Assembly: GCA_963718525.1 (NCBI GenBank)
Contig: OY970355.1
Span: 704,001-768,000, forward strand
Source of the DNA: Candidatus Dormiibacterota bacterium
Lineage (GTDB): Bacteria; Chloroflexota; Dormibacteria; Aeolococcales; Aeolococcaceae
Reading direction: 5' to 3'
Length of the DNA: 64,000 nucleotides
Below, one piece after another: positions 24,477 through 60,110 of the stretch (the stretch's first letter is position 1; every line of letters starts with the position of its first letter). Below the pieces are notes generated by a model, which searched no databases, was not told the DNA's origin, and saw nothing but the letters and a program-made list of their open reading frames with translations. The translations under genes and the position numbers were made by a program.

Positions 24477-25286
24477 CTAGGCGACGACGCGTTTGCCCGC
24501 GATGCGCGGGCGCGGACCGAGACCCTCGCGGGCAGCTTGATCGAGCAGCGCGCTTACCTTGGCAACATCGAACCGCGTTCTCGGAGGACTCGGCCTGCAC
24601 AACCAGTCGACTAGCTCACTACCGCGTACGAAGGTGACCTTGTCCACCTCAGTCGGACCCTGCTCGAACTGCCCCCACAGCACGACCACGGGATCCACCC
24701 ATATCCTGATTCCGGTCGCGTGCTGGATGCGCTCCTTCAGAGCGGCGCTCGCACTCCCTTCTTTGGCAAAGATTCCGCGGTATTCCGAGACCATGTCGGG
24801 GTCCTCCAGCCATTGGAAGTGAAGACCACTCTTGTCGACGGTAATCTGCCCGAAGCAGTCCTTGGTGTCCAGCAGGAAGACACCTGTGCTACCAACGACA
24901 ACATGGTCGATGTTTGTCTTGTCCTCCCATTGAAGATCGTGCCATACCCTCCAGTCTGCGGGGGGCAGACGGCGTAGAGCCTTCGCAGTTTTCCGCTCGC
25001 CTTCACTGCCCCATTGCCAATTCTGGATCCGTGCCGGAGGGGACTCCCTCTGCCATGCGAGCGATCCGAGGAGCAACCCTGCTGCGATTCCGAAGGTGAC
25101 CTTCCACTGCCCGCCTACTACGAAACCGATGACACCGAAGATGACAGCGAGCCCCAGCCACAACGCAAAGAAGACACGGAACCGCCGCCGCCAGGCGCGT
25201 GCGAGCTCCGTGTATTTCTGCCCAGCTGATCGACCGCCACGCTGCGGGGTATTCACGACTTGTATCCTCGTTGGTCGATGTCCCAC
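24477..25286 (-). CDS. Membrane-anchored NERD (nuclease-related domain) protein
   Basis: Two TM helices, then W..GSEGE, HDL, NIDHVVVG...VFLLDTK. Confidence 0.85.
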   Translation of the reverse strand: MGHRPTRIQVVNTPQRGGRSAGQKYTELARAWRRRFRVFFALWLGLAVIFGVIGFVVGGQWKVTFGIAAGLLLGSLAWQRESPPARIQNWQWGSEGERKTAKALRRLPPADWRVWHDLQWEDKTNIDHVVVGSTGVFLLDTKDCFGQITVDKSGLHFQWLEDPDMVSEYRGIFAKEGSASAALKERIQHATGIRIWVDPVVVLWGQFEQGPTEVDKVTFVRGSELVDWLCRPSPPRTRFDVAKVSALLDQAAREGLGPRPRIAGKRVVA

Positions 25287-26320: not shown

Positions 26321-27412
26321 CTATCCGTCCTCGACCCCGAAGATGGCCGCGAGCCGGGTCAACGTGAATCGCTGCCGGAGTGGACACGCACTGTTCTGGT
26401 TGGCGAACATGCCCTGTTCCCATATGGCCTCAGCCTGCGGGCGTGTGCGCTCCCAACGCACCGGAACGACGTACTCCGTCTTGTCTTTCGCCGCGTCTGT
26501 CCCCCAGAAGTACGTTCCCTTCAATGGCACGTCCGCGAGCCTTCGTTCTTGTCCGCCCACCTCGGCAGTAGCGTCGGCGAAAGGGCGTGCCTCACCAGTC
26601 ACATGCCCAACCCCCACGTAGCCGCTCTTTGGGATGCAGCAGAAGATTCGCGCATCGACGGGTAACTTGCGGAGGGTGTGGGAGAACCATTCCCCGCCGC
26701 CGGCCGCGACAAAGCCATAGTTCCGGGCGTCTTCCCAGACCCGACCGTCGGGATCCACACCAAAGTTGACGTACCAGTCCTTACCGTTCCACGGCTCCTT
26801 GTTCCGCACACCAAGGTGTCTCGGCGCTGTGGCGCCCGCATCACTCGCGGCATCCAGCAACCATGTCCGGGCAAGATAGGCCCGATCGCCGTCTTGGTAG
26901 TAGCGGAAGAAGGCGACATTGATGGGGACGCCGTAGCCGCTATTCAGGTAGGTGATGATCCGCTCGCTCGCAGGGTCCACCTCCGCGGCGATGATGGTCA
27001 GTTGGTGCTCAGTGTTAAGGGCGTCGGGCGGAGCGTCGCCAAACACCTCGCTGAAGGCCTGCTCAAACACCACGCCAGGACGGTATCCCGCGAAGGTGTC
27101 GAGCACCTGTTGATGGCTCAGCGTGCTGACCCAGGACCCGTAGTCCAGCGCTTGGGCGACCACCTCGCGAGGAGTCCGGTGACGCTTCAACTCCAAAACG
27201 TGCAGAACACCGTCGCCGTCTACGGCGAGCAGATCAATGACGCCCCCGTATGCTGTTGAGACCTGGCGGCCAATGAGGAGGAGGCGCTCTCCAAGCATGC
27301 TTGGGTCCTTCTCGAGCATGTCTTCGAGCTGCTGCTCGCGCGGTACGCCCAGGGGATCCAGCCGGTGAGGCTCGCCACCGTCGACCCTCCACAAGCCTAT
27401 CTCAAGTGACAT
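26321..27412 (-). CDS. NucS/DUF91-like PD-(D/E)XK endonuclease with C-terminal EVE/PUA-like region
   Basis: EQQLE, IGRQ, IDLLAVD, LELKR and VAQALDY nuclease motifs. Confidence 0.8.
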   Translation of the reverse strand: MSLEIGLWRVDGGEPHRLDPLGVPREQQLEDMLEKDPSMLGERLLLIGRQVSTAYGGVIDLLAVDGDGVLHVLELKRHRTPREVVAQALDYGSWVSTLSHQQVLDTFAGYRPGVVFEQAFSEVFGDAPPDALNTEHQLTIIAAEVDPASERIITYLNSGYGVPINVAFFRYYQDGDRAYLARTWLLDAASDAGATAPRHLGVRNKEPWNGKDWYVNFGVDPDGRVWEDARNYGFVAAGGGEWFSHTLRKLPVDARIFCCIPKSGYVGVGHVTGEARPFADATAEVGGQERRLADVPLKGTYFWGTDAAKDKTEYVVPVRWERTRPQAEAIWEQGMFANQNSACPLRQRFTLTRLAAIFGVEDG

Positions 27413-27973
27413 GCGAGTATTCTCGCCCGTGGCGCGATTAAGGGGTGAGATGGAATTACTTGTCTCCGCTGCCAACGACATTCAAATAGTTCAGCGAGCG
27501 CAATGGGCCTAGCCCGGCTCCGAGTTCGTGAGCTGCAGGAACTTGAGCCCTTTGATCTCGCTCGCGTACACAGCTAGCATTTGTTCTCAGCGCGCACCAC
27601 ACGCCGCCTCGTAGCAGCGCATCGCGAGCTCGCGGATGCGTCTTGTGCGCTAAATCGGGAAGCATCACTAGGGAAGTAGCTCCGATTCTAGGGCTCGGCC
27701 TCCTGGTGCATGCGGCCGTCCCAGTCGCTCGTGGTACGTCGGCGGGAAAGGGCGAGTTGGATATACCTTACCGGTCCGGGCATAGTGTGCCGATCGCATT
27801 GCCCATCCACAAGCCGCACGCGCGCCGGCGCGCTCGGAGATGAGCCGGAGGTGCGTACTCTGCGTCTTTCCGGTTGGCCCGACCGTCGAGCCGAACGTTG
27901 AGCTCTCAATCTTCCTAGTAGCCGGCACGCAGTCGCAGGTACGCTCCGCCCGCGATCCGTCTACGCTTCTGGC

Positions 27974-28753
27974 GTGATATACGACCGCCCGGTCAGCGAT
28001 CTCATGCGAGATGCCGCTGCCGCCATGACACCCCCCTTCTCTGTAGGCGACGTGGTCGCCTGGTTCAACCAGCATTACCCGAAGATCAAGAACAACACGA
28101 TCGGTGCTCACGTCCGGGGATTGACTTGGAACGACCCCAATCGGAAGCACTACGCGTGGCTTGCAACGAAAGATCCCCTCTTTACCCGGACCGTATTTGG
28201 AAAGCTTCGGCTCTTCGACCCGGACGATGTTGGGATTGAGATCGGTGGCGACAACTCGGCAGATCTTGAGGAGGGCGATGGAGACGAGGTGCCGTCCACG
28301 GCGCAGGACGTTGAGTTCGTTCTGGAGAATCAGCTCGAGGAATTCCTCGTGGGTAACTGGCACCGCATCAATTGGGCGCGGGACCTTCAGATATGGAAGT
28401 CACCCACCGGAGTCTCGGGGCATCAGTTCAACACGGCGGTGGGACGTCTAGATTTCCTTTGCATCGACGCCAAAACTAAGGCTCTCGTGGTGGTGGAGCT
28501 GAAGCGGGGACGACCCTCTGACAAGGTGGTCGGACAGATTGCCCGGTATATGGGGTGGGTTCGTCGGAACATCGGCTCGAAAGGGCAGGCTGTGGAGGGC
28601 CTGATCGTTGCGCACGAGAGCGACACGGCTCTGAGTTATGCGGTAAGCGAGATTCCGGGACTTCGTCTTATGACCTATGAAGTCAAGTTCGAGCTCTCAG
28701 CGGCGGGATTGCCAGACCCGCGGGAGGCGGCCGATTCGGCGATGTCAGGGTAA
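27974..28753 (+). CDS. NucS/DUF91-like endonuclease with N-terminal helical/wHTH-like domain
   Basis: LENQLEEFL, GRLDFLC, VVELK and VGQIARYMGWV motifs. Confidence 0.85.
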   Translation: MIYDRPVSDLMRDAAAAMTPPFSVGDVVAWFNQHYPKIKNNTIGAHVRGLTWNDPNRKHYAWLATKDPLFTRTVFGKLRLFDPDDVGIEIGGDNSADLEEGDGDEVPSTAQDVEFVLENQLEEFLVGNWHRINWARDLQIWKSPTGVSGHQFNTAVGRLDFLCIDAKTKALVVVELKRGRPSDKVVGQIARYMGWVRRNIGSKGQAVEGLIVAHESDTALSYAVSEIPGLRLMTYEVKFELSAAGLPDPREAADSAMSG

Positions 28754-30753: not shown

Positions 30754-32112
30754 CTACGCGCGTTCGACGAAGACCTCGATGGCTGGCCCGATCTGCGCGA
30801 GTAATTCCGCTGCCAACTCTTGCACCAAGCGTTCCAGCTCGACGCTGCCAACGGCGGCACGCCGTTCTGGAGGTTGCCACATGTACGGAACATCAAGGAC
30901 ATCCACACGGCCAACTGTCACGAGGGTTCGGACGATGGCTTCGCCGGCCTCCGTCATCTCGACGGCGCGGCTGGCACGAAGTTGAAGGTTGCGTCTTTGC
31001 GGGCTCGGCATGAGTTGAGTACACCTCTGCCAACGAAAGGGAATCACAGGAGCACCGATGTAATCTCGCGTGCGCAAAGTGTTGTTGGTTAGCTTGTCGT
31101 CGACCGCGTCGATCTCGAGGTAGCCTCCGATGACACCCAGGGCATCATTGATAGGGCTACAAAGCCGTCGGAACCTCTCGACGGTCTCCTCAATCTGGCT
31201 CATGCGCCGGCCCAAGAGGTCACTCGCTGCGAGCTCTGCCTCGTTCTTTGCGCGAAACCGCGCCGCCAGCTCACTGACATCGGGGACCGAGCTTTCATTG
31301 GAGAGGAGCTGCCAGGCTGCGAGATCGCGCGAAACCTGTTCCATTGATGGGCGAGCCACTGGGTCGGTCCTCGTCATTCCATCGATGAGCCGATCCAGAG
31401 CATCGGCATTCGGATGCGGACGGAGTTCCTCGATAGTGAATCTCCGATCGCTAGCGGCCTGATGTCCATCGGGCGGGAATCGCTGTTCTGTGGCCAGCAC
31501 CCACAGTGTCTTGCTTAGCGAGTACACATCCGCCGGATGAGGGTCCGCGTTGGCTGGATCCCTCACGAGCTCGTAGGCGGTGAAATGCGCCGGCCCCAAC
31601 GGACGGTCGTGCCGCGTGAGCTCCGCCATGTCTGGAAGATGAATGATGCCGAAGTCACCGACCAACGGTCTGCTGTCGACCACGTATACGTTTTCAGGTT
31701 TGATATCTCTATGGGCTACGCCATAAGACGCCTTCAGGCGTGTGAGGGTCAGGGCGATCTCCTCGATCGCAGCGACGACGGCGTTGAGAGGCTGGCCAGC
31801 TAGAGCCTGATTTATTGGGGTAGCGATAGGCATCGCAAGCCACGCCCGATCCTCCGCCGTCGGATTCTCGGGTAGATACGCATCCAGTAGAGGCAAGATG
31901 CCTGTCGTGTCCCCGAGCTTTTGGAGGAACGCCACTTCTCGAATGAATCGACGGTACGGCTCCTTGTCGACATGAGTCGCATGCAGCACCTTGAGCGCGA
32001 CCGGAGTCGCATTTCCCGGTCGAGTTGCGGACCAGACGGTCGCGTTACCGCCTTCGCCGAGCTTCGGGCCTCGGAGCCATGGACCGATTGTCTTTGGTGT
32101 CTCGTCGCCCAT
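30754..32112 (-). CDS. Hanks-type Ser/Thr protein kinase, cytoplasmic
   Basis: LGEGGNATVW, VALKVL, HRDIKPEN, DFG and DVYSL motifs. Confidence 0.92.
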   Translation of the reverse strand: MGDETPKTIGPWLRGPKLGEGGNATVWSATRPGNATPVALKVLHATHVDKEPYRRFIREVAFLQKLGDTTGILPLLDAYLPENPTAEDRAWLAMPIATPINQALAGQPLNAVVAAIEEIALTLTRLKASYGVAHRDIKPENVYVVDSRPLVGDFGIIHLPDMAELTRHDRPLGPAHFTAYELVRDPANADPHPADVYSLSKTLWVLATEQRFPPDGHQAASDRRFTIEELRPHPNADALDRLIDGMTRTDPVARPSMEQVSRDLAAWQLLSNESSVPDVSELAARFRAKNEAELAASDLLGRRMSQIEETVERFRRLCSPINDALGVIGGYLEIDAVDDKLTNNTLRTRDYIGAPVIPFRWQRCTQLMPSPQRRNLQLRASRAVEMTEAGEAIVRTLVTVGRVDVLDVPYMWQPPERRAAVGSVELERLVQELAAELLAQIGPAIEVFVERA

Positions 32113-32221
32113 TCTCAGTAGCCAATCGCAGCTTACGCGCCTACCCGTCCGTAACAGGAGCGGCCATTTTTCGGTGGAGGCACGGACCAGTCTCTCATCT
32201 TCTTTGACGAGTTCGCGTTTA

Positions 32222-33076
32222 CTATCCCGGCCACAGCGCATCCTTGACCGATGAAGCAAACGGAATGACACAGGAGGCAAGGAAGTCTGGTAGGTGCTCT
32301 TGCTGGACAAAGTCAATAGCAAAGCGACCAGTGAGCGAGGTTGACTTGAGCTCCCGCTCCAGCGTAATGAATGGCACCCGCTCAGGCACCACGGGATCGC
32401 GATGGACATCGACGATCCAAAGCGGTGACGGCACGACCACCATTGGGAAGTAAAGGCTTGCGTGTGCGTACTGTCCGCCAGTAGCTTCGACGGGCATTCC
32501 TGGTTTCATCGGTCCCATCGTGTACTTGTGGCTCTTCTGAAAGTCGCGCAGAGCCTTCGCCAATGGATAGACGAGAGATGTGAACACTGAGTTGTTATCA
32601 GCAGCCCACTCCTTCCCACGACGATTGAGGCGCACGATCTGAACGGCCTTCAACTCCTTCTGGAACTGGTAATGGTGCGCTGACAAGCCGAAGTGTCGGA
32701 AAGGAGGTGTCTCAGTGTATCCAGTGCCATGAGGGACCTGAACAAACCGCATGGGAAACTGATACTCGCTTGGACTCCGTTCAAGGTCGGCCACGCTCTT
32801 TCGACGAGCAAGGAACACAAAGGGATTCGACGTGTTCTTGCACTCGCACAGCAGCTGCACATATATGGCTCGGCGCCGAGCCTCATCGTGAAGCGACCGC
32901 CAGAAGCCATGCACGTCGATCTCACGCGACGTGCCCTCCTCAGGATCTGTGAACGCCCGCCCCGTTTTGGCATAGAACCCGGCCGCCTCGAAGGCCGTCG
33001 CGACCTCTTGCTCCAAGAGGAACCCCGAAGCGCTCAGGGCGTCGACTATCTGGCTTTCGGTGGGCTCGTCGGACAT
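32222..33076 (-). CDS. Hypothetical PD-(D/E)XK nuclease-like protein
   Basis: SGFLLEQEV...REIDV...CECK spacing. Confidence 0.6.
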   Translation of the reverse strand: MSDEPTESQIVDALSASGFLLEQEVATAFEAAGFYAKTGRAFTDPEEGTSREIDVHGFWRSLHDEARRRAIYVQLLCECKNTSNPFVFLARRKSVADLERSPSEYQFPMRFVQVPHGTGYTETPPFRHFGLSAHHYQFQKELKAVQIVRLNRRGKEWAADNNSVFTSLVYPLAKALRDFQKSHKYTMGPMKPGMPVEATGGQYAHASLYFPMVVVPSPLWIVDVHRDPVVPERVPFITLERELKSTSLTGRFAIDFVQQEHLPDFLASCVIPFASSVKDALWPG

Positions 33077-33363
33077 CAGGCTGCAATGTAGTCCGAGCGG
33101 GCCGCTCTTCGTGCAGGAGGTACCTCGACACCTCGGGTAACCAAGGGCGTAGTTGCCTTGGTCGGGGGGGATTAAGCCCTACCGCCACAGCGCGTCCATT
33201 GTGGTCACGGCGCTCGATCAGTTCCCAAAGAGCTTGTTCCACTCACACACCGAGCCCTCGGCAAGCGCCGCATCGGACACCCCTGCGCCGAGGGCCGAAG
33301 GTCGCCGAGACTTCGGGTATGGCTTCCGGGTTGGGGCTGAAAAGGCGACCACATGCCACTCTC

Positions 33364-34098
33364 TCAAGCTGCGGCCGCGCGAACGCTGTCCAGGATTCCG
33401 ACAAGCTGGTCAATCTCCTGTTCTGAGAACAGGTCTTCCGGCCCGTGCGGAGCGAGATCTGTAAATGGGGCCTCGTAGAGAAGCGCAGCACCCATCACAC
33501 CGCGCTGAGTCAGGTGGTTGACGATCATATCTACGAACTCGATCTGATTAGCCGTCATCATCTTTCCGGACAAGAAGTCGGCAAACGCCTCCTTGGCCGC
33601 TCCCCGATCAAGCCCTATCAGCGAGCGTACGAACAATCCGAGGCCTTGGTTCTCCTCCTTGGCCTTGGCGATCGCTTCGGCGTCACCGATGCCGTGATCG
33701 GTGAACATGGCTTCGAGGGAATCCAGATCGGTCGCTGTCAGTGGCTTATTCATCCGCAAGCGATGGACCGCGATGTTGTCCTGGTGGTCTCGTAGGAAGG
33801 CTCTTGCCTTTGCTTGGAAGCGCTCGAATGACACGGCGGGGACCACGCCAATCAAGTCGTACTCGGTTTCCGGGCCTATCTCATCTTCGAAATCGGAGTA
33901 GAGCAAAGAGCGCTGACTCTTTTCGATGAAACGCACTAGCAACCGCAGCTTCTTGCGGACCTGCTCGAGCATTGCCACGGTGACGTCTTCCCACCACTCC
34001 GGGGATTGCAAGTCCTCAAGCAGGACGAGTTGCTCCTTGACCATCGGGATGGTCGATAGCCCTTCGAGAAGACCGGCGATCTCCTGCACCTGGCTCTT
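33364..34098 (-). pseudogene. hsdR: 3' remnant of type I restriction enzyme R subunit (EcoEI R C-terminal domain)
   Basis: EWWEDVT..MLE.VR.KLR.L, GLGLFVRSLIGLDR, NQIEFVDMIV and LYEAPFT; 5' part replaced by IS110 sequence. Confidence 0.85.
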
Positions 34099-34099
34099 C

Positions 34100-34727
34100 C
34101 CGGCCGCGGCGGTGTCATGGCACGGCTGCGTGCCCTCCACGGCCTCTCTACCGCACCCAGCTGTACCGACCACTCACCAGCCGAGGCAGAGCTTGTCGCC
34201 TGGGCACTCGAGCTGAGATGCGAGATCCTCGGCTTCGAATCGCTGATCAAGCAGCTCGAAGCGCGTTTGCCACAACTGCTGGCCGAGCGCGGCTCAACAC
34301 TGACCCAGGAGTTCGGGATTGGCGTCGTGTCCGCAGCAGAGTTGGTGGCTCAAGTCGGGGACGCTCGTCGATTTCGCAGCGAGAGCGCGTTCGCCCGCTG
34401 GTGTGGCGTTGCACCGGTCGCCGTCTCGAGTGGCGAAGGCGCAGGGCAGCCTCGTCGACACCGACTCGACCTTCTCGGCAATCGCGCGGTCAACCGGATC
34501 CTCTACACGATGTCGGTGACCCAGGCGAGTCACCACCCACCTGGACGCGAGTTCCTGCAACGCAAGCGGCATGAAGGCAAGTCGTTGAAGGAGGCTCGAC
34601 GAGCTCACAAGCGACTGCTCGCCAACCGTGTCATCCGTCGAATGTGGGCGGACACGCGGAATACGCGCCGAACCACTTCCGTCTGCATAGCCGTGGGCCT
34701 GACTGCTGTCGCTTGACAAAGGAGCCT
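34100..34727 (+). mobile_element. IS110-family transposase 3' fragment and right end
   Basis: GIGVVSAA, FRSESAFA..CGVAP..SSG, RHRL..GNR and A.RA.KR motifs; DEDD N-domain missing; TTGACA at 34713. Confidence 0.85.
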
Positions 34728-35241
34728 CGCAACGTGGCCAGCGCCGTGCCCAAGCTGCACGCGCCGGCGGTGCTCGCGGTCGTGAAGTCGATCTTTCTGC
34801 AGCCAACTCGTGAGACCGCCCGCGACGCCGTGCACCACGCCCTCAGCGTGCTCGAGCCACGCTTTCCGACAGTGGCAGCCAAGCTCCGTGCGGCTGAAGC
34901 CGACGTGCTCGCGTACTTGGACTTTCCGGTCGACCACTGGCGCTCGATCTCCTCGACCAATGCCATCGAGCGGGTCAATGCGGAGCTCGACCGCCGCGCC
35001 AAGGTGGTGGGCATCTTCCCCAACACCGACTCGCTGCTCCGGCTGTTCACCGCAGTGCTCCAGGACCAGCACGACGAGTGGCAGGACGGACGCCGTCACT
35101 TCAGTCAGCAGTCGATGGCTCGCGTAATGCACCCCGACGGCCCGCCGCTGCTCACCAATCCGCTCACGGAGGGACTTGTCGCGTAGCTCACCGACGTTGC
35201 GAGAACTCCACCGAATTCACACCACTACCGGGGACTTGACC
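34728..35241 (+). mobile_element. IS256-family 3' fragment with right terminal repeat
   Basis: Near-identical to the 3' part of the 37795-39191 element; ends ...GGGACTTGACC. Confidence 0.92.
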
Positions 35242-35308
35242 GGGAGGAGGTTCGTTAGAGAGCGAGCGCTTGCGTTCTCACCTGCGTGGTCGCAAACAAA
35301 GAGCAACC

Positions 35309-35412
35309 ACTTGCAGCATTAATGAGCGCAGGAAAACCTACTTGCAGCATTTCTGCACCCACTTGCAGCATTTGTGATCGTTGAATACTTGCATCATTAA
35401 TGAGCGCTAACA
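35309..35412 (-). repeat. Four direct repeats ending at a TGT terminus; putative Tn7/Tn402/Mu-class transposon end
   Basis: ACTTGCAKCATT at 35309, 35340, 35361 and 35387 (two extend to AATGAGCGC); the minus strand reads TGTTAGCGCTCATTAATGATGCAAGT from 35412. Confidence 0.65.
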
Positions 35413-35413
35413 A

Positions 35414-35670
35414 TCAGCCACAACGGTTCGTAGCTCCGCAGCTGTGGCACATGTAACCGGCGCCGCTGCGCACCATGAGGCTGCCGCAATCGCTGCACGT
35501 TGGCGCGTTCCTCCTGGTTGATGAATGCACCGGAGCTGATCGTGGAAATCGGAGCGACCGGCCTGCGACGGTGGCTGCAGGAGCGGTCGCAACCGCCGAC
35601 GCGGCTGATCGTTCGAGCCTTCCGTGGCCATGCGCAGGAAGTACTCGCCAGGAGTGTCGTCCCTCGTACA
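35414..35670 (-). pseudogene. nrdJ: Degenerate, internally deleted copy of the nrdJ 3' end
   Basis: Aligns to 52956-53020 and ~53310-53489; by hand, 16 mismatches plus 1 indel over the last 114 nt. Confidence 0.85.
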
Positions 35671-36277
35671 GGACGCGCTTCCAGACCCAGCGAAATGGAT
35701 GCGTAACGCGTCAGCCGATAGATTCGGCTCGCGTCTCCGCAACGGTATTTCTTGTTCGCGCGGGCATGCGTGCCTAAACAATGCACGCGCACGCGTCGGC
35801 GACCCTTCCCTCGCTAGGGAATGCGACAGGGTGTACCTCCGTCGCATGGAAAGGCGCGATGGATCTTATCGGACCCAGCGCCGGTGGCTCCGACACCCTG
35901 GCGTTCTCAAGACCCCTCCGGAGAAGCGTCCGGTAGCGCCGCCCGACACGAGGATCGCCCAGCCCCTGCGACACGGGATCCGCTCAGCGGCTGCGTTCAT
36001 CTAGTCGGAAAGCGGGCCCGACTCGAAGCGAGGTACGAGCTCGGTGATTGGCTGAGCCAGAGTTTTCCAATCTAAAGCCAGCGCCTGCACAGCGGGCTCG
36101 CTGAACTCCGTCGGGTAGGCTGACGCCAACAACCCCGCTCGTGTGCAGCGACTGACCGATGCGACGCGACCGCGAGGGACTCGAGCGCCGACAGTGCTTG
36201 TGGTTGCATGGCTGCCTTGACCCAGCGGCCACACCAATTGCTCCCCCTGTGCGATCGGCAAGCGGCGGCTAAGCCGG

Positions 36278-37411
36278 CTACGCCAGGGCGCCTACCGGCG
36301 GGTTGGGTGAGATCTTTTTGGGGCTCGTGAACCCGGTCGAGAGCAACCAGGTCGCCCCAACCGGGAAGTCGTTCTCCGACGCGACAAGACGATCGTCAGC
36401 GAGCCACTCCTCCGGAGCGAAATCCCGCAGGGTGGAAACGGCAGCGTCGGTGCTCAAATCCACGACCGTGGTCACGTAGTAACCGGAGGGGGAGCCGAGG
36501 ACCCCCACGTACGCGCCATACGCCAGGTAGCGTCCGTCGCCGGACACGCTCACAGCCCCGTACTCTGCGTTTGCAGGTTGCATGGTCAGCGTCTCGGTGC
36601 CCGAACTGCGCACCACCTTCAGGCTCGACGAGCCCACCTGAGTGACGCATACCGAGCCGGACTGGTTGAATACGGTGCATTTCTGAGGCTGCGTGAGCGC
36701 CCGCGTGGTGAGATCGAATGTGGCTGGGTTGAAACCAACGTAGGTGAGGAACGGTCCCGCCCCACCGAGCCCTTTGGGCATCTCCGAAACCGAGATACCA
36801 GTGGTGCTCCATCCGAAGGGCATCAGCACCTCGCCACCGTTGTCGCTGTTGTTGGCGTCGTCATAGACCATGGTCGCGGATAGGGCGGTGCCGCCCAGAG
36901 GCTCGGTCCAGAGCTGTGAGTGGTCGGTGGTCGCGCCGTTGTCGCCGGTGATGGCAAGGGGGAGGCCGAATACGAGCGTTGTCTCGTCGGGGGACACGGC
37001 AAACGCGGTGTCCCCCCGGAGATCGATCGCGGTGACCGTAGTGCTCACCTGGGGCACCTGGCCAACGTCGGTGACGGTGCCGTCGCGTCCGATCGCCTTC
37101 ACGGCGGTGCCGTCGATGAAGTAGACATGATCGGTTCCGACGTAGTACGCGTCGCCGTCGGCTCCCCCGGGGTCGTCGACCGTGGCGGCGACGCTGCCGT
37201 CCTCACCGACCAGGGTGAGCTGCACAGCGCTCCCGGTCCTCAGTGCGGTCACCACCAGCGGCGGAGGCGGCGCGGGAGTGGGTGATGGAGTCGGCACCGG
37301 CGTTGCGGTCTGCGCAAGGGTTGGCCGCGCAGTCGGTGTGACCGGACTCGATCCACAAGCTGCGAGGCCAAGAGCTGCGAATGCAGTGCCGATGATGGTT
37401 ATGCGTTTCAT
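36278..37411 (-). CDS. Lipoprotein with Pro/Thr linker and probable beta-propeller domain
   Basis: MKRI...LAAC lipobox; AVSPDE and SVSGDGRYLAY WD40/TolB-like blades. Confidence 0.75.
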   Translation of the reverse strand: MKRITIIGTAFAALGLAACGSSPVTPTARPTLAQTATPVPTPSPTPAPPPPLVVTALRTGSAVQLTLVGEDGSVAATVDDPGGADGDAYYVGTDHVYFIDGTAVKAIGRDGTVTDVGQVPQVSTTVTAIDLRGDTAFAVSPDETTLVFGLPLAITGDNGATTDHSQLWTEPLGGTALSATMVYDDANNSDNGGEVLMPFGWSTTGISVSEMPKGLGGAGPFLTYVGFNPATFDLTTRALTQPQKCTVFNQSGSVCVTQVGSSSLKVVRSSGTETLTMQPANAEYGAVSVSGDGRYLAYGAYVGVLGSPSGYYVTTVVDLSTDAAVSTLRDFAPEEWLADDRLVASENDFPVGATWLLSTGFTSPKKISPNPPVGALA

Positions 37412-37794
37412 GACTGCCAATTCAACGGGAACCATCATCAACGGTTACATGCGTATCAAATGCGTCGAACGCTCTCACCTTGGGATCGGGCTCAGGCGAA
37501 GCGAGGAGGCGCGTGAGGTTGTCAACGATGGCCGCGGGCGCGACGTCACTGACGTCACGCGGGGCGCTGGGTTGACCAACACGGAGACCGGCTGAATGCG
37601 CTCGGGGGAGAGGCTGCCAGATCGAATCAACTCTCGGCGTTGGGACCACGCTCCGCGCGACAGTCCGCGTCTCCCCCGCCGTGATGGTCGTGGTGAATGT
37701 CTGAGACACCCCTCGGTCTTCGGAAGCCCCCGAGGGTGTCGACCTGACTCCCCGCGGGCCAACCGAATATTGGGGAGCATGGGGACTGCCAAAA

Positions 37795-39191
37795 GGTCAA
37801 GTCCCGGGTAGTGGTGTGAATTCGGTGGAGTTCTCACAACGTCGGTGAACTAAGCGACAAGGCCCTCCGTGAGCGGGTTGGTGAGCAACGGCGGACCGTC
37901 GGGGTGGAGCAGGCGAGCCATCGACTGCTGACTGAAATGTCGGCGACCGTCCTGCCACTCGTCGTGCTGGTCCTGGAGCACGGCGGTGAACAGGCGCAAC
38001 AGGGAGTCGGTGTTGGGAAAGATGCCCACCACCTTGGCGCGGCGGTCGAGCTCGGCATTGACCCGCTCGATGGCGTTGGTCGAGGAGATCGAGCGCCAGT
38101 GGTCGACCGGGAAATCCAGGTAGGCGAGCACATCGGCCTCAGCCGCACGCAGCTTGGCTGCCACCGCGGGAAAGCGTGGCTCCAACACGGTGAGCGCATG
38201 CCCCACCGCGTCGCGGGCGGTCTCGCGCGTCGGCTGCAGGAAGATCGACTTGACCACCGCCAGCACCGCCGGCGCGTGGAGCTTGGGGACCGCGCTGGCC
38301 ACGTTGCGCAGAAAGTGCACCTTGCAGCGCTGCCACGTCGCCCCAGTGAACACCTGCGACAGCGCACTGCGCAGCCCTTCGTGGGCGTCGGAGATGACCA
38401 GCTGCACGCCGCTCAGTCCGCGTCGCGACAGGCTGCGGCAGAACTCCAGCCAGAACGCCTCGCTCTCGCTGGCGCCGACCGCAAGCCCGAGCACGCTCTT
38501 CTCGCCGCTGTCGCGCACACCCACGGCCACCACCGCCGCTTGGCTCACGATGCGCGCACCCTGACGCACCTTCTCGTAGGTCGCGTCGAACCAGACGTAC
38601 GGGTACGGCTCATCGAGGGGCCGCTCCCGGAACTCGGCGAGCTCCTCGTCGAGCAGCGCGCAGATCCGGCTCACCTCGCTGCGACTGATGCTGCAGCCAC
38701 CCAAGGCGGCCATGAGGTCGTCGACCTTGCGCGTGCTGATGCCGAGCACGTAGGCCTCTTGGACGACCGCCAGCAGCGCGCGATCGATACGTCGCCGAGG
38801 CTCGAGCAGCGACGGGAAGAAGCTGCCAGAGCGCAGCTTGGGGATCTGCAGCTCGAGGCGTCCCGAGCCGGTGTCGAGAACCCGCTCTCGGTAGCCGTTG
38901 CGGTACGTGGTGCGTGTCGATGCTCGCTCGTGTGGGCCGGCGCCGATCTGCGTGGCCGCCTCGGCTTCGATGAGCCGCTGCATGGCGTGTTCGAGGACAC
39001 GTCGCAACACGTCCGTGTCCGCGCCCTGAAGTTGACCGATCAGCGCCTGGTGCGTCATCCTGTTCTGGGCCATCGTGGGTCTCCTGGTTTGGGTTAGAGC
39101 TTCCAAGAGAACTCCGCGGTGGCCTACTTTGTCTACCTCGTCGGCAGCCCTGAGGTCACCCCGGATTTACACCACAATAAGGGACATCACT
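37795..39191 (-). mobile_element. Complete IS256-family element with 8-bp target-site duplication
   Basis: Imperfect terminal IRs GGTCAAGTCCC.../AGTGATGTCCC...; TGCCAAAA at 37787-37794 and 39192-39199. Confidence 0.95.
37850..39073 (-). CDS. IS256-family (mutator) transposase
   Basis: RNGYR, IPKLR.GSFFP, FDA, ISDAHEGL, WQRCKVHF and TNAIER motifs. Confidence 0.96.
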   Translation of the reverse strand: MAQNRMTHQALIGQLQGADTDVLRRVLEHAMQRLIEAEAATQIGAGPHERASTRTTYRNGYRERVLDTGSGRLELQIPKLRSGSFFPSLLEPRRRIDRALLAVVQEAYVLGISTRKVDDLMAALGGCSISRSEVSRICALLDEELAEFRERPLDEPYPYVWFDATYEKVRQGARIVSQAAVVAVGVRDSGEKSVLGLAVGASESEAFWLEFCRSLSRRGLSGVQLVISDAHEGLRSALSQVFTGATWQRCKVHFLRNVASAVPKLHAPAVLAVVKSIFLQPTRETARDAVGHALTVLEPRFPAVAAKLRAAEADVLAYLDFPVDHWRSISSTNAIERVNAELDRRAKVVGIFPNTDSLLRLFTAVLQDQHDEWQDGRRHFSQQSMARLLHPDGPPLLTNPLTEGLVA

Positions 39192-39345
39192 TGCCAAAAC
39201 GCGTCCACCCAGCGTCCACCAAAGCTGGGAGAGAAGCTTCGGGCGCTCTGATCGGCTGAGCCAGCGTTAGCCGTTCTACTCGGCGTTCGCGATTTGGTGT
39301 GCACATGAACCTGATTAGCACCGACTGAGCGCGCATCCCCGGTCA

Positions 39346-39638: not shown

Positions 39639-39710
39639 GGTGATGTTTTGAGGACTTATCCACAGGTCGAAATCACCCGAAACTGCCCGAATCGAATTCA
39701 AAATTCGGGT

Positions 39711-39785
39711 TGGCTGGGGAGGGAGGATTCGAACCTCCGATTGGCTGATCCAGAATCAGCTGCCTTACCACTTGGCCACTCCCCA
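39711..39785 (-). tRNA. tRNA-Gln (anticodon CTG)
   Basis: TGGGGAG acceptor stem, GCTGA-TTCTGGA-TCAGC anticodon arm, GGTTCGAATCC T-arm, encoded CCA. Confidence 0.97.
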
Positions 39786-45760: not shown

Positions 45761-45943
45761 TGACCACCTCCACCGCCCTGGGCCGCTGTTGACACCGGTG
45801 TCGATTATGCGGCGGGAGCTTGAGCGCTCTCATCGTGCCCCTCGCCTGACGACAGCCGTGGCGGTGCGCATTTGTCCGCGCCGCTGCGGCTACCATACCC
45901 TACGATACTGTCATTCTGCGAGCGCATACAGTGGAGTGGCGGC

Positions 45944-47110
45944 ATGGATCAGATCGAGTTCGCCGACGGCTTCGACAGACCAGACACGATCGCGTTCGGG
46001 CTCGGCGCCGGGCAGGTCGCCGTGGTCATGGCCTGCGCGCTTGCCGCGTATTCGCTGGTGCGCTCGCCGCTGCCGCCCGCGTTTGTCGACCCGATCGCCG
46101 GATTGCTCGTGGTTGCGGCGGCTGCGCTCGGGTGGCTGAGAGTCGAGGGGCGGCCGGCGCTCGACTGGGCGATCTTCGCCGGACGTTTCTGGATGCGTCC
46201 GCGCCGGGGGATGACCCGGTGGGAGCTCGCGACCACCACCCCGGGTGACGACGCCCAGCCTGCGCCGGGCACCGCTGCACAAGGGGCTGTCATTGAGCTC
46301 TTCGCTGCGCGCGGCACGCCTCCCGCGAGCGACCCGGGAACGCCGCCCGTGCTTCGCCCCATCAGCCGGGGGAGTGGCGCGCGACGGGTGACCTTCTTCT
46401 CCCTGCGAGGCGGCACCGGGCGCAGCACGCTGGCCACCGAACTCGCGTGCCTGCTCGCCGCCAGCCATAGCGAACAGCGCGCGGCTCCTCGGGTGGCACT
46501 CGTCGATCTCGACCTGCGCAGTCCGAGCGTGGCAGTCCGCCTCGGTACGCCGGAGCAGACGCTGCTCGACTACGCGCTCGCCCCGCCCGAAGAGAGACGA
46601 GTCGTCGACTTCATGGCCACCCACTCGTCCGGCGTCCGCCTGCTGCTCGGTCCACAGCGCCCCGTGAATCCCGAGTGGCCGGTGACGCCGGCGCTCCTCC
46701 GCGAGGTGCTTCGCGAGCTGGACATGGAGGCGTTCGACCTCGTGGTTCTGGACGTGTCGCCAGAGCTGTCACCACTGAACACCACGGCGATCTGCGCGTG
46801 CGATGACGTGTTCGTGGTGGTCGTGCCCACAGCGGGCGGTGTGCAGGATGCGTATCGGAGCACGGCGGCACTTCGCGGCCTCGGGCTGCGCCATCAGCTC
46901 CGCTACGTCGTCAATCGATCCAGGCCCGAGACGGACCTGAGTGAGCCGATGGCCGACCTCGGCGGTCAGGTGATTGGCGATATTCCGGACGACGAGTCGG
47001 TGGTCACCGCAGAGAATGCGCATCGACTCGTGACCCTCGACGAGTCGGCTCCTGCGGCGATCGCCCTCCGCCGACTCGCGCGCAGGGTCGGGAGCGAGCT
47101 GCACGCCTAG
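45944..47110 (+). CDS. PrgI (VirB3-like) membrane domain fused to MinD/CpaE-like P-loop domain
   Basis: N-terminal DRPDTIAFGL..GQ plus two TM helices; FFSLRGGTGRSTLA, LVDLDL, VVLD and VVNR motifs. Confidence 0.7.
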   Translation: MDQIEFADGFDRPDTIAFGLGAGQVAVVMACALAAYSLVRSPLPPAFVDPIAGLLVVAAAALGWLRVEGRPALDWAIFAGRFWMRPRRGMTRWELATTTPGDDAQPAPGTAAQGAVIELFAARGTPPASDPGTPPVLRPISRGSGARRVTFFSLRGGTGRSTLATELACLLAASHSEQRAAPRVALVDLDLRSPSVAVRLGTPEQTLLDYALAPPEERRVVDFMATHSSGVRLLLGPQRPVNPEWPVTPALLREVLRELDMEAFDLVVLDVSPELSPLNTTAICACDDVFVVVVPTAGGVQDAYRSTAALRGLGLRHQLRYVVNRSRPETDLSEPMADLGGQVIGDIPDDESVVTAENAHRLVTLDESAPAAIALRRLARRVGSELHA

Positions 47111-49305
47111 TGGCCGGACTCAGCATCCGGGGCTGGCGGCCATCGGCGGCACCGGGACTCGCTGCGAAGATCGAGATCCGCGGAGACCATTGCGAGTACA
47201 CCGGGCGGGTTTCCGCAGTGCTCGCGACCAGCGAGTTGGACATCGATGCGCTGGATCCCGCGCGCAAGGCGGCTGCATCGGCGTCGTTCGCGCGCCTCTG
47301 CCACACGTTGCAGACCCCGATGCAGCTGCTCGTCCGCGTCCGGCTCCTCGACGCACCAGACGAACCGATCGCTGATGGCCCTCATGCCCATCTCGATGAC
47401 GCGATGCACCGGCACTGGACTGAACAGATCCTCGACGGCAACCGGCACACCCGTCAGGTCCTGGTCGCGCTGAGTGCCTCGACGCCATCGGCGCTTGACG
47501 CGGCGTGTGCGCACGCGAGCGATCGCCTCGGAGCGCTCGGCGTCATCGCGACGCGCCTCCAGGACGGCCCGCTGATGGACGCGCTCACCGCCGGCCTCGA
47601 GACGAAGTGCGATTGGTACGAGTATCCGAAACACGTCGCGATCGGCGGGATGCTGGTGCGCGGTCATGCGCTTCGGCGTCTTCCCGGCCACGCGGTGGGG
47701 GCGGGCTGGCTGGCACCGCTGCTCAGCGTGCAGACCGAGTGCGACATCGCGATCCACGTGGTGCCGGCACCCCTCGGCGAAGCCCTCGGCCGCCTGAGCA
47801 GGCGACTGCGTGATCTCTCCGCACATCGCATGCTCGAGGTCGAGCGAGGCGCGCTCGGTGACGTGCACGTCGACATCGGTTTCAACTCGGCAACCGCACT
47901 CCGCGAGAGGCTGGCACGCAACCAGGGACGTCCGCTCCATCTCTCAGTCGTGGCAACGGTTCGCGGCGATTCCCTCGACAGCGTGCACGCCCGTGGCGAG
48001 ACGTTGCGCGTGGCATTCGCGTCGTCGCTCATCGGCGTCGAGGCAACGCACTTCCGCCACATGGCCGCGCTGGTCAGCACGCTCCCACTCGGCGTCGAAG
48101 CGCTGAGCGCCGGCAAGCTCGTCGACTCTGCGGCCGCGGCCACGTGCATCCCGTGGGTCGAGACAGGATGCTCGGATCCAGGCGGATACCGGCTCGGCGC
48201 GGCGATCACCTCCGGACTTCCGGTCAAGGTCGCGCCGTTCGACACCACGCGCCATCCCAACCCGAACATCGCCGTCTTCGCAGCCTCAGGCCACGGCAAG
48301 AGCTTCGCGATCGGCACGCTCGTGCTCGAAGCCGCGGTCACAGGCGTGAACTCGGTGATCATCGATCCCGAGGGCGAGTACCGCGGCCTGGTCCGCGCGC
48401 TCGGCGGGCGCTACCTCGAGCTCGCGCCCGGCACCGGCGCCGCAGTCAACGTGTTCGAAGGCGCCGGCAATGATCCCGAAGCGGCGATTGCCGCGGTGGT
48501 TGACCTCGTCACCGTGCTGTGCGGCGATCAACTCGGCGAGGTGGAGCGCGCCGTCATCGACGCCGCAGCGCGGGCGGGTCTCGAGCGTGCGGCGGGCGAC
48601 CACCGCGTCCCGCTCCTCGAGGACTGCATTCCCACGCTCGATGTCGACGCGCGCCCCGTTGCCGCTGTGGTCCGGCGCTTCTGCACCGGAGGCCTCGGTG
48701 CCCTCTTCAACCGTCCCACGTCGCTCGCCGTCGATTCCGGCGTGTGCGCCATCTCGCTGCGAGACATGCCGCCCGAGCATGTTGCGGCCGCGACGCTCAT
48801 CGTCGCGCGTTGGTTGTGGGAGCTGGTGCAGCGCGACCGGCGGCGCCGTCATATCGTGTTCGACGAGGTTGGCGCGCTCTGCGTGCACCGCCCCCTGCGC
48901 GACCTGCTCGTGCAGCTCGCGCGACGCTGCCGCAAGTACAGCGCATCGCTGGTGGTGGCGACGCAGAACGCGCAGGACCTGCTCGGCACCGATGAGGGCA
49001 GCGTGATCGCGACCAATTGCGCAGTGGTCCTCCTGGGTGGTCATCGAGCGGCGGAAACCGCGCGAATGGAACGTGCGTTCGGCCTCACCGAGGCGCAGCG
49101 AGGCTTCCTCGAGACCGCATCTCGCGGCGAGTTCCTGCTCCTCGCGGGCGATCGGCGCGTTGCCATGCGCATCGAGGTTCCGGAGGTACACCGGTCCATA
49201 CTCAATGGCGAATTCGCGGCGCAGTACCCCCTTGACGGCAGCCCTCCCGACTCGCAAGATATGGGGGCTCCCGGACGGCTGAGCCCCAAGATATGGGATC
49301 ATTAA
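47110..49305 (+). CDS. VirB4/TraE-like HerA-FtsK superfamily ATPase
   Basis: NPNIAVFAASGHGKS, IIDPEGEY, IVFDEV, RCRKY...ATQ and RGEFLL motifs. Confidence 0.85.
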   Translation: MAGLSIRGWRPSAAPGLAAKIEIRGDHCEYTGRVSAVLATSELDIDALDPARKAAASASFARLCHTLQTPMQLLVRVRLLDAPDEPIADGPHAHLDDAMHRHWTEQILDGNRHTRQVLVALSASTPSALDAACAHASDRLGALGVIATRLQDGPLMDALTAGLETKCDWYEYPKHVAIGGMLVRGHALRRLPGHAVGAGWLAPLLSVQTECDIAIHVVPAPLGEALGRLSRRLRDLSAHRMLEVERGALGDVHVDIGFNSATALRERLARNQGRPLHLSVVATVRGDSLDSVHARGETLRVAFASSLIGVEATHFRHMAALVSTLPLGVEALSAGKLVDSAAAATCIPWVETGCSDPGGYRLGAAITSGLPVKVAPFDTTRHPNPNIAVFAASGHGKSFAIGTLVLEAAVTGVNSVIIDPEGEYRGLVRALGGRYLELAPGTGAAVNVFEGAGNDPEAAIAAVVDLVTVLCGDQLGEVERAVIDAAARAGLERAAGDHRVPLLEDCIPTLDVDARPVAAVVRRFCTGGLGALFNRPTSLAVDSGVCAISLRDMPPEHVAAATLIVARWLWELVQRDRRRRHIVFDEVGALCVHRPLRDLLVQLARRCRKYSASLVVATQNAQDLLGTDEGSVIATNCAVVLLGGHRAAETARMERAFGLTEAQRGFLETASRGEFLLLAGDRRVAMRIEVPEVHRSILNGEFAAQYPLDGSPPDSQDMGAPGRLSPKIWDH
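49232..49299 (+). promoter_or_regulatory. nrdJ promoter with tandem NrdR boxes
   Basis: CAAGATATGGG cores at 49255 and 49287 (32-bp spacing); TTGACG at 49232 with CAAGAT 17 nt later. Confidence 0.75.
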
Positions 49306-49406
49306 CGTGATCTCACCACTGGAGATAGGGGCTCGAGGTCGCCAGGGCGCGGTCCTGCACACGTCTCTGCACAATGAAGCGCCCACCAGCTAGAAGAGGA
49401 AAGACC

Positions 49407-53489: not shown

Positions 53490-53517
53490 TTCCATAGCAC
53501 CTCCTCCCCTCTCGCCC

Positions 53518-53548
53518 GGGGCCGCCTCCGATCGCTGGAGGCGGCCCC
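53518..53548 (+). terminator. nrdJ terminator hairpin
   Basis: GGGGCCGCCTCC / GGAGGCGGCCCC 12-bp stem. Confidence 0.75.
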
Positions 53549-53635
53549 TCTTAGAGCACTCGACGGTCCTGAGAATGGTTCGTTACCTACGCGCGACCAC
53601 GGACTCCGGTACCGTCTGGCAACACTTTCCCCGCG

Positions 53636-59013: not shown

Positions 59014-60110
59014 ATGACACAACGCCATGTCGTGATCGTGGCGCCACCGTGGTATCCGATTCCCCCGAATGGCTATGGCGGGATCGAACTGGTCGTCGGG
59101 TTGCTGGGCGACGCCTTGCGCCAGCAGGGGGATCGGGTCACGCTCCTTGCCGCCGAGGGTTCAGAGCCCGGCGCGATTGTGCTGGCGCCCCGTTCGTGGC
59201 AGGCGGACCTCGGTGGACCGGACGAGCGGCTCCGCGAGTTGACCTATGCGTCGCGGGTGGCCACGACGCTGACCCAGCTCGAACGCATTGACGTGATTCA
59301 CGACCACTGCGGCTTCGCGACACTTGTGGCGGCATGTGCCGCGAATGTCGCTCCCGTCGTCCACACCGTGCATGGGGATATCCCCGAGGCGTATGCAACC
59401 TCTACTCCTCGGCCGTCGATCACGCGGGCTTTGTGGCGATCAGCGCGGCGCAGCGCCGAACCCTGCCGGATTTCCGGTGGATTGGCACCGTTCACAACGC
59501 CGTCGATGTCGACAACCTGCTGGTGACGCCGACGCAAAAGGTTCCATTCCTGCTGTGTCTCGCGCGCATATGTCCGGACAAAGGCCAGCACGTCGCCATC
59601 GAGGTGGCGCGGCGCACTGGGGTGCGCCTCGTGCTGGCCGGCAAGGTCGAATCCACACCGCGGGCGACCGACTACTTCAGGCGCCAGATCGAACCGTTCA
59701 TCGATGGCATACGGGTCCTCCATTTCGACAATGTCGTCGGCGACGAGAAGGCGCTCCTCCTAGCGCGAGCATATGCGCTCCTCGCGCCGCTGCAGTGGGA
59801 TGAGCCTTTCGGACTCGCACTGGTCGAGGCGATGGCGAGTGGTACGCCGGTCATCGCCATCAGCCGTGGTGCGGCACCGGAACTGGTGACGGATGGGACG
59901 ACCGGCTTCCTCGTCAACGATGTCGAGGAGATGGTGCAAGCGGTCTCCCGGGTTGCCGACCTGCGGCCCTCCGACTGTGCCGCGGCAACGCGCGCCCGCT
60001 TCAGCCCATCAACGATGGCGTCGTCCTATCGACGCATCTACGACAAAGTCGCGTGGGAACCGGAAGCGCCCCGGGAGCCAGCGGGGGTCTTGGAGAACTC
60101 GGCCGCATAG
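59014..60110 (+). CDS. GT4 glycosyltransferase with 1-nt frameshift at ~59400
   Basis: PP.GYGGIE in the first frame; DKG and EPFGLALVEAMASGTPV in the second frame. Confidence 0.85.

Follow-up and report, generated by a model that had tools for sequence, protein, structure and literature searches.

We analyzed a 64,000-nucleotide stretch of the genome of a Candidatus Dormiibacterota bacterium (contig OY970355.1, forward-strand positions 704,001 to 768,000; hereafter the window), in which an earlier note had marked an orphan Tn7-like transposon end next to the 3' end of a gene resembling nrdJ, the gene for class II ribonucleotide reductase. Direct reading of the minus strand placed a TGT terminus at 35412-35410, separated by the single base 35413 from a TGA stop codon at 35416-35414, and a repeat search identified one repeat family with four direct copies at 35303-35406, spaced by 31, 21 and 26 nt. 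The TGT terminus, the four same-orientation repeats and the 1-nt distance to the TGA of an nrdJ-like 3' end were therefore all confirmed. The junction on the minus strand reads ...GGCTGA T followed by TGTTAGCGCTCATTAATGATGCAAGT..., and it is made up of the following features.

35242-35412, minus strand: probable relic of the right (nrdJ-proximal) end of a Tn7-like transposon, 171 bp
35412-35387, minus strand: terminal 26-mer TGTTAGCGCTCATTAATGATGCAAGT, the outermost stretch of the relic end
35387-35398, 35361-35372, 35340-35351 and 35309-35320, minus strand: four same-orientation repeat cores, presumed by analogy to be TnsB-binding sites
35413-35416, minus strand: junction, with the TGA stop of the nrdJ fragment (35416-35414) and one target-derived base (35413), after which the TGT begins
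35414-35675, minus strand: decayed nrdJ fragment (pseudogene) made up of 35414-35581 and 35604-35675

Inward of the terminal 26-mer, the relic contains three more repeats, a spacer of ~50 nt and 16 nt (35257-35242) that correspond to the first 16 nt of a conserved stretch preceding a GC-rich hairpin in intact copies. The four repeats share the core AATGCTGCAAGT, and an alignment of eight ends had invariant TGTTAGCG and TGCA cores. The 12-mer core ACTTGCAGCATT occurred as three exact copies and one copy with a single mismatch, all inside 35309-35398. When up to two mismatches were allowed, the 64-kb window gave seven matches, of which the three outside the array each had two mismatches and were scattered. 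Since shuffled windows gave a mean of 3.08 such matches per whole window, the array is notable for its clustering and not for its total count.

The open reading frame (ORF) that ends at the TGA resembles the C-terminus of NrdJ: its last 58 residues were 48% identical (28/58, E 6e-15) to the end of the 1371-aa NrdJ encoded elsewhere in the window. The piece at 35414-35581 represents the last ~170 nt of nrdJ, and that at 35604-35675 corresponds to sequence situated ~490-560 nt ahead of the stop codon of intact genes, so that ~310 nt are deleted between the two. The fragment shared 82% identity with the nrdJ of this genome and 88.6% with that of another congeneric species (G014). As it is closer to the latter, the fragment looks imported on sequence comparison, and not like a recent duplicate. 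Together with the relic it lies 14 kb from the real nrdJ, in the opposite orientation. The intact gene and its downstream region are as follows.

49374-53489, plus strand: intact nrdJ, class II ribonucleotide reductase of 1371 aa with Pfam Ribonuc_red_2_N, barrel and TSCPD domains and a LAGLIDADG intein
53498-53550, plus strand: native GC-rich hairpin after nrdJ, a putative terminator and its only copy in the genome

Direct reading found no transposon end after the intact nrdJ, which is followed directly by the GC-rich hairpin. The last five nucleotides of this gene, GCTGA (53485-53489), constitute the unoccupied insertion point. Thus the nrdJ-like 3' end that the earlier note took as the attachment site is real, but it is a decayed foreign fragment and not the attachment site of this genome.

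The intein content of nrdJ varies among these genomes. The gene in the window has one intein, which carries the LAGLIDADG domain; that of the congener G030 has none (990 aa, L017:4653-7622), and that of a genome from a different genus, G136, encodes 1594 aa with two Intein_splicing stretches (L052:9669-14450).

Intact relatives and insertions at the nrdJ stop codon

We searched 60 relatives and the genome itself with the end and the nrdJ part as the query. It matched in 33 of the 36 genomes of the same genus, and in all but one of these only the nrdJ part was matched. In the one exception, G030, the end was matched as well (84% over query positions 2-271), and the repeats gave a second match, in inverted orientation, at a distance of 58 kb. 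G030 contains a full element of 58 kb at C20:480479-538648. Its nrdJ-proximal junction, ...GGCTGCAGCTGAT / TGTTAGCGGTCAAAAATGCTGCAAGT..., has four repeats and is situated 1 nt past the stop of the real nrdJ, and its distal junction, ...ACTTGCAGCAATGATGACCGCTAACA / GCTGATTTCCTAGAACC..., has three repeats in inverted orientation. GCTGAT was present on both sides of the element, and the distal flank runs on into the nrdJ hairpin. The target-site duplication, GCTGA(T), takes in the stop codon, and lengths of 5 and 6 bp are indistinguishable here. Removal of the element together with one copy of the duplication leaves an empty site like that of the window. Hence the second end and the duplication, neither of which had been confirmed in the window by the earlier note, are both present in a congener. 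The window sequence at 35242-35567 was 83% identical to the end and nrdJ junction of G030. In G033, a distal end with three repeats is preceded by the nrdJ hairpin and GCTGAC; the contig stops 460 nt inside the element. Overall, the intact relatives have three to four direct repeats at the nrdJ-proximal end and three at the distal end (G030, G033), with two found in G136. Tn7 has three sites in its left end and four in its right, the right end faces glmS, and insertion generates a 5-bp duplication.

The repeats could in principle be a chance or regulatory array of the operator or iteron kind, with its adjacency to the TGA a coincidence. The single copy in this genome and the lack of a transposase nearby would fit such an array. 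However, the same array with its TGT terminus is found at the same position in other genomes, where it has an inverted partner and a target duplication, and it matched no Rfam family (a scan of 30-56 kb matched the tRNA alone). We therefore regard this explanation as close to negligible.

Seven junctions from four genera of Candidatus Dormibacteraeota (the window, G030, L042, L044, G136, G102 and G140) have an end 0-1 nt past the nrdJ TGA, which supports the 3' end of nrdJ as the attachment site, as had been proposed. The terminal 26-mer pattern was present in 4 of 42 genomes of the genus, namely G000, G017, G030 (at both ends) and G033, and in the species-representative genome collection it was confined to the records of these four. 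None of the conclusions draws on G056, whose genome is flagged as unpublished. A single metagenome scan identified three contigs, L042, L043 and L044, of which L043 was identical to the G017 contig. Both L042 and L044 read ...GGCTGCAGCTGAG / TGTTAGCGATCAG..., and since their nrdJ sequences and repeat variants differ they represent independent junctions. The one-base gap between TGA and TGT also occurs in G030, L042 and L044. We considered whether the 4-repeat ends are solo scars standing before the native terminator, but this was contradicted in G030, which has the duplication at both ends, and in G017, where the end moved together with the hairpin. The contigs of L042 and L044 stop 1-1.8 kb inside the end, and these two could be solo scars.

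In G136, nrdJ comes immediately after a homologous transposition module and lies on the other strand. Its junction reads ...GGGTGCAGTTGA / TGTCATGCGACAAAAAGATGCAACA... and has three repeats; the distal end is 23.7 kb away, and only two repeat copies were found there. GTTGA, the five bases with which nrdJ ends, flanks the element on both sides as a clean 5-bp duplication. The 5-bp duplications anticipated in the earlier note are thus exact in G136, while in G030 they may be of 5 or 6 bp. An older end remnant (TGTCGGTAGACACAAAAGGTGAAACA) was detected just past the distal duplication, at about 180,960-180,990 of G136:C6 (about 2960-2990 of L051), indicating that the same site was hit at least twice. 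This double use comes despite the target immunity expected of Tn7-like elements. We also analyzed the region downstream of nrdJ in eight other genomes with a distant TnsB. A TGT end with repeats lay directly past the TGA in two of the eight (G102 and G140), and none was found downstream of nrdJ in the remaining six.

Two further genomes have short repeats after the nrdJ stop: the pentamer run GCTGA GCTGA GCTGA GCTGC GCTGA in G107 (L053, G107:C88) and GCTGA-TGA-GCTGA in G098 (L055, G098:C79). Since the transposon duplicates GCTGA at its target, such runs may have been left by repeated rounds of insertion and loss and later been expanded by slippage, or they may be due to chance.

Each of the five ends in the window's genus (window, G030, G017, L042 and L044) contains, 60-250 nt inside, a copy of the segment that follows nrdJ at empty sites (CTAACG.ACCTCCTCCCCTCTCGCCCGGGGCCGCC...GGAGGCGGCCC). 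The copy in G017 was 98% identical over 52 nt to the native hairpin of the window, while the relic in the window keeps only the first 16 nt of the segment, up to the cut made by an IS256-family element. A genome-wide dispersed repeat was rejected as the source, as the genome has one full copy only. Because insertion separates nrdJ from its hairpin, the simplest reading is that the internal hairpin would serve as a built-in replacement terminator for nrdJ.

Transposition genes and a candidate target selector

The transposition genes of G030 form an operon of overlapping genes that encode proteins of 243, 499, 250, 154 and 253 aa, a helix-turn-helix (HTH) protein and a Lon-like AAA protein. The 499-aa protein has rve and Mu-transpos_C domains. 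Its closest solved structure is ShCAST TnsB (E 1.1e-20), followed by a TnsA-TnsB fusion from Pseudoalteromonas and Tn6677 TnsB. The 250-aa protein matched AAA_22 at 1.5e-20 and TniB at 6.7e-4, and gave a weak match (E 0.1) to the 276-aa ShCAST TnsC. For the 243-aa protein, which has no Pfam family, a single relative was found among 401 phylum-sampled genomes, in G136. The module of G136 encodes a 458-aa protein that matches the 243-aa protein with its C-terminal part, a 597-aa TnsB ~28% identical to that of G030, a 229-aa ATPase (Pfam TniB at 6.5e-6), a 421-aa protein that spans both the 154-aa and the 253-aa protein of G030, and an HTH protein. PADLOC returned no match for the module proteins of G136, and a sequence search of a 299-aa ORF of G030 against solved structures gave nothing usable. 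When the TnsB of G030 was searched against 161 genomes of the order, 10 genomes matched at E <=1e-20, nine of them at only 27-32% identity.

These findings bear on whether the end could belong to an IS21-family or other multi-repeat-ended insertion sequence (IS) that by chance lies beside the nrdJ fragment. The ends of IS21-type elements are similar in having TG at the terminus and several sub-terminal repeats, and an IstA-like element with 22-bp repeats lies inside the G136 element. But the ends in G030 bracket 58 kb rather than 2-3 kb, the transposase is of the Mu-transpos_C type with TnsB as its closest solved relative, and seven junctions at the same nrdJ nucleotide are unlike IS behaviour. 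The NCBIfam IS21 model scored the G030 transposase at 33 bits against a cut-off of 160. An origin from such an IS thus appears highly improbable. The IS21-like element of G136 (L051:15477-18406) is situated just upstream of the tns operon and encodes a 521-aa IstA-like protein (Mu-transpos_C_2) and a 273-aa ORF. Arrays of 22-bp repeats delimit the element, with four copies on one side and two copies, in inverted orientation, on the other.

The gene upstream of tnsB occupies the position of tnsA. It keeps an E...D...ExK motif in three of three homologues and in G136. The AF2 model of its product was poor (pLDDT 51, 3-sequence alignment), so that its best neighbours by VIA-align, Cas4-family, Dna2 and AdnAB nucleases (Z 7.1-5.1), are only suggestive. 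The protein is plausibly a PD-(D/E)xK-like nuclease partner.

The 421-aa protein of G136 had 345 relatives at E <=1e-3 among 1.84 billion cluster representatives, and its AF2 model (63-sequence alignment) reached a pLDDT of 90.4. Foldseek matched the N-terminal domain of the model to AAA+ proteins (Cdc6 at 5.6e-4, the MuB filament at 1.3e-3) and the C-terminal half to Cre, XerH and XerA. The sequence profile of the family also matched XerA, at 7e-5. Pfam TniQ matched none of the 63 members. The family conserves R246 (60/62), Q249 (62/62), R354 (58/62) and W408 (53/62), while no conserved tyrosine was present at any position after R354 in the 62 sequences, and the family consensus has no GK[ST] Walker A motif. 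As both the tyrosine and the Walker A motif are missing, the AAA+ and recombinase-like domains both look inactive as enzymes. The domains also occur apart, repeatedly: in G030 they are encoded by two overlapping genes, and several database matches cover one domain only. By analogy with known selectors, the 421-aa protein is our candidate for the factor that would read the 3' end of nrdJ and hand over to the ATPase; the HTH protein encoded downstream in both elements is an alternative candidate.

A tyrosine-recombinase-like fold in the gene after the ATPase allows for site-specific recombination instead, in which this protein would be an active integrase, the repeats arm-type sites, the nrdJ 3' end attB and the DDE genes a nested transposon. 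Gene 3' ends are frequent targets of integrative islands, and one of the 63 family members matched Pfam Phage_integrase, at 5e-6. Nevertheless, the region after R354, where the nucleophile is expected, has no conserved tyrosine. TGT...ACA inverted termini with a 5-bp direct target duplication are the signature of a transposase and not a shared att core, and the coding end of nrdJ is not duplicated in G030 or G136. Furthermore, in two distant elements the genes for the DDE transposase, the ATPase and the recombinase-like protein overlap within a single operon. We consider an integrase origin very unlikely.

Taken together, we put the probability at about 0.88 that the stretch 35242-35412 represents a dead right end from a Dormibacteraeota lineage of Tn7-like DDE transposons that inserts in a single orientation exactly at the stop codon of nrdJ. 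The proposal of a relic of a site-specific Tn7-like element was largely right, given the intact copy in G030, the DDE transposase, the ATPase and the nrdJ junctions. Several observations weigh against this reading. A 5-repeat variant of the end, in G017, adjoins a different ORF while the nrdJ site of that genome is empty, so that of the ends found, seven are at the nrdJ stop and one (G017, the same as L043) is next to a different gene; the 22.7 kb of the G017 contig inside the end contain no tns homologue. The element is rare: its end was found in four of the 42 genomes from the genus, and a close TnsB in a single genome out of 161 from the order. The tns operon of G030 lies 42 kb from the nrdJ-proximal end and that of G136 is transcribed towards nrdJ, both unlike Tn7. 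No Pfam TniQ (PF06527) was found in the G030 operon (E <=1), the G136 operon (<=0.01) or five whole genomes. Similarly, TnsA_N (PF08722) was found neither in the elements nor in five whole genomes, a negative that carries little weight since the control search matched nothing in the control genomes either. The tnsABC and tniQ genes expected next to such ends are thus represented in the intact relatives by TnsB-like and TnsC/TniB-like proteins, but no Pfam TniQ or TnsA was detected. Without TniQ or TnsA_N, it is unproven that the elements belong to the Tn7 family sensu stricto; a very divergent TniQ, for example among the HTH proteins, is possible.

Cargo, decay and the island around the relic

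The G030 element carries genes for RelA/SpoT-like, TrbL and CHAP-domain proteins, a large serine recombinase, DUF4365, DUF7669/NucS-like, type I restriction-modification and WapI proteins. The window is collinear with it, in the same orientation, over three blocks: 27973-28721 (71%), 33024-34093 (72-87%) and 35242-35567. The features recognized to the left of the relic and at the edge of the surrounding island are as follows.

27973-28721, plus strand: cargo gene, DUF7669 and NucS-like nuclease resembling PADLOC candidate PDC-S02, 71% identical to G030 in the same order and orientation
33329-34093, minus strand: cargo remnant, fragment from the C-terminal part of a type I restriction R subunit (EcoEI_R_C), 87% identical to the G030 element
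34117-34716, plus strand: IS110-family transposase fragment (Pfam Transposase_20), part of the IS debris
34728-35241, plus strand: IS256-family element fragment (Pfam Transposase_mut), whose terminus at 35241 truncates the interior of the relic
39711-39785, minus strand: tRNA-Gln(CTG), at the edge of synteny with relatives

PADLOC candidates among the cargo in the window were PDC-S11 (26321-27481, E 1e-147), the PDC-S02-like nuclease (27974-28753), a Ser/Thr kinase resembling PD-T4-6/mad6 (30754-32409) and the type I restriction enzyme fragment. Both the collinearity with the G030 cargo and these candidates support the suggestion that the defence genes to the left of the relic are its cargo. 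A NERD-domain protein is encoded at 24477-25286. For annotation, this would make the defence-gene island the wreck of such an element and the 3' end of the intact nrdJ an empty attachment site.

The 127-bp end region is present as a single copy in the 3.34-Mb single-contig genome, and a whole-genome search identified no second end. By tblastn, no homologues of eight transposition-operon proteins of G030 were found in this genome, Lon-like matches excepted, which bears out the suggestion that the tns genes had been lost. The ~8.8 kb between the hsdR fragment and the end in G030 are represented in the window by 1.1 kb of IS debris. Within this debris, 34728-35241 was 89.9% identical to a full IS256-family copy at 38308-37795, and the alignment stopped exactly at both termini. 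An inversion between the two IS256-family copies was rejected as the origin of the arrangement, as collinearity with G030 already extends over the cargo, the end and the nrdJ fragment. At least four full or partial copies of the IS256-family element are present in the genome. A 387-aa lipoprotein-like ORF without a Pfam family (36278-37441, minus strand) has a 66% identical paralogue near genome position 2,238,000, which adjoins further IS256-family copies (the copy region in the window is 37795-39200).

Synteny with five relatives begins exactly at 39710/39711, the 3' end of tRNA-Gln(CTG). Since the regions past this tRNA differ in all four relatives examined, the relic lies in a variable island by the tRNA. 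On the left side of the island, a PPK2 gene was the sole match, present in two of the five relatives at other loci. Judged from these comparisons, the flank of tRNA-Gln(CTG), leftward to about 23.6 kb, is a predicted integration hot spot; no integrase was seen in the island of the window.

Directly upstream of nrdJ, G000 and G030 both encode ParA-like and TraG/VirB4-like P-loop proteins (45872-49305 in the window), and in G136 the TraG/VirB4-like gene alone was confirmed. The two genes appear to be backbone and not mobile, an unusual conserved neighbourhood for nrdJ. Elsewhere in the window, a GT4-family glycosyltransferase at 59014-60110 is split into two overlapping ORFs (Glyco_transf_4 at 59014-59526 and Glycos_transf_1 at 59334-60110), which is either a frameshifted gene or an assembly error.

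Proposed mechanism and comparison with known systems

In the mechanism that we propose, a selector encoded by the transposon would recognize the highly conserved 3' end of nrdJ, which encodes a zinc ribbon, and recruit the ATPase. The ATPase would in turn recruit TnsB bound at the end repeats, and staggered cuts across GCTGA would set the multi-site end beside nrdJ. The best candidate for the selector is the degenerate AAA+ and tyrosine-recombinase-like protein without a conserved tyrosine, which may act like TnsF. The copy in the window would have arrived joined to a piece of the nrdJ of another species, in the island by tRNA-Gln. Left without its distal end and transposition genes and cut at 35241 by the IS256-family element, it would now be immobile.

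We tentatively extend this, at somewhat short of even odds, to the idea that Dormibacteraeota host an undescribed TniQ-less branch of Tn7-like elements, in which the dead AAA+ domain docks on the ATPase, the dead recombinase domain reads the zinc-ribbon-coding end of nrdJ, insertion takes place at the stop codon and the element brings its own replacement terminator. Judging from the 345 relatives of the 421-aa protein, such a branch perhaps exists in other phyla as well, e.g. in Actinomycetota. The target selectors of Tn7-like elements are of interest because they allow DNA to be inserted in a precise and programmable way, and the attachment sites turn into hot spots where defence and resistance islands gather. 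The present elements would add a lineage from an uncultured soil phylum and a candidate selector composed of two inactivated enzyme folds, with no detectable TniQ.

The elements resemble Tn7-like transposons in their TGT...ACA termini, in having several direct repeats with more of them on the target-facing end, and in inserting in a single orientation at the 3' end of a conserved housekeeping gene that is left intact. They also share the 5-bp duplication (G136), a TnsB-type DDE transposase, a small AAA+ regulator and a large, defence-rich cargo. They differ from known Tn7-like elements in that the target is the class II gene nrdJ, insertion occurs 0-1 nt past the TGA and not tens of nucleotides downstream, neither TniQ nor TnsA was detected with Pfam, the tns genes are placed and oriented differently, and the host belongs to an uncultured phylum.

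A ribonucleotide reductase gene as the target is a feature shared with nrdB- and nrdD-targeting elements. According to a 2025 preprint (10.1101/2025.07.27.667033), a major branch of Acinetobacter baumannii elements has nrdB as its attachment site, nrdD serves archaeal and some bacterial Tn7-family elements in this way, and ribonucleotide reductase genes became targets several times in evolution. The earlier note did not recall nrdJ as a described attachment gene. Our search of the full-text literature, which left supplementary tables that could list nrdJ outside its scope, likewise found no paper linking Tn7-like elements or TniQ with nrdJ, but the related genes nrdB and nrdD are already published. 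Neither 'nrd' nor 'ribonucleotide' occurs in the main text of Faure et al. 2023 (PMC10293859). If the present reading is true, all three classes of ribonucleotide reductase are landing sites for transposons; with the nrdJ stop codon joining nrdB and nrdD, these genes look like recurrently chosen safe harbours.

TnsF, the selector of Tn6022-like elements that targets comM, is described in Faure et al. 2023 (PMC10293859) as having an inactivated tyrosine-recombinase domain. Like TnsF as described there, the 421-aa protein is encoded by the transposon together with TnsB and TnsC, has a tyrosine-recombinase fold that is seemingly dead, and is a candidate reader of a conserved coding sequence. In the same description TnsF has N-terminal zinc fingers and tandem CB domains and acts with TniQ, whereas the 421-aa protein has a degenerate AAA+ domain (Cdc6/MuB-like) and no TniQ was seen.

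The minimal modules of CRISPR-associated transposons (CAST) of type V-K and of Tn5053-like elements, with TnsB, a small TnsC/TniB and TniQ, are similar in that ShCAST TnsB is the solved structure closest to the present transposase and the ATPase is of comparable size (250 vs 276 aa), whereas the present elements have no CRISPR components and no TniQ, and carry a PD-(D/E)xK nuclease-like gene upstream of tnsB that has no counterpart in those TnsA-less modules. Finally, in contrast to IS21, which spans 2-3 kb and encodes IstA and IstB, the present elements have matching ends that bracket 58 kb in G030 and about 24 kb in G136, and their transposase is TnsB-like.

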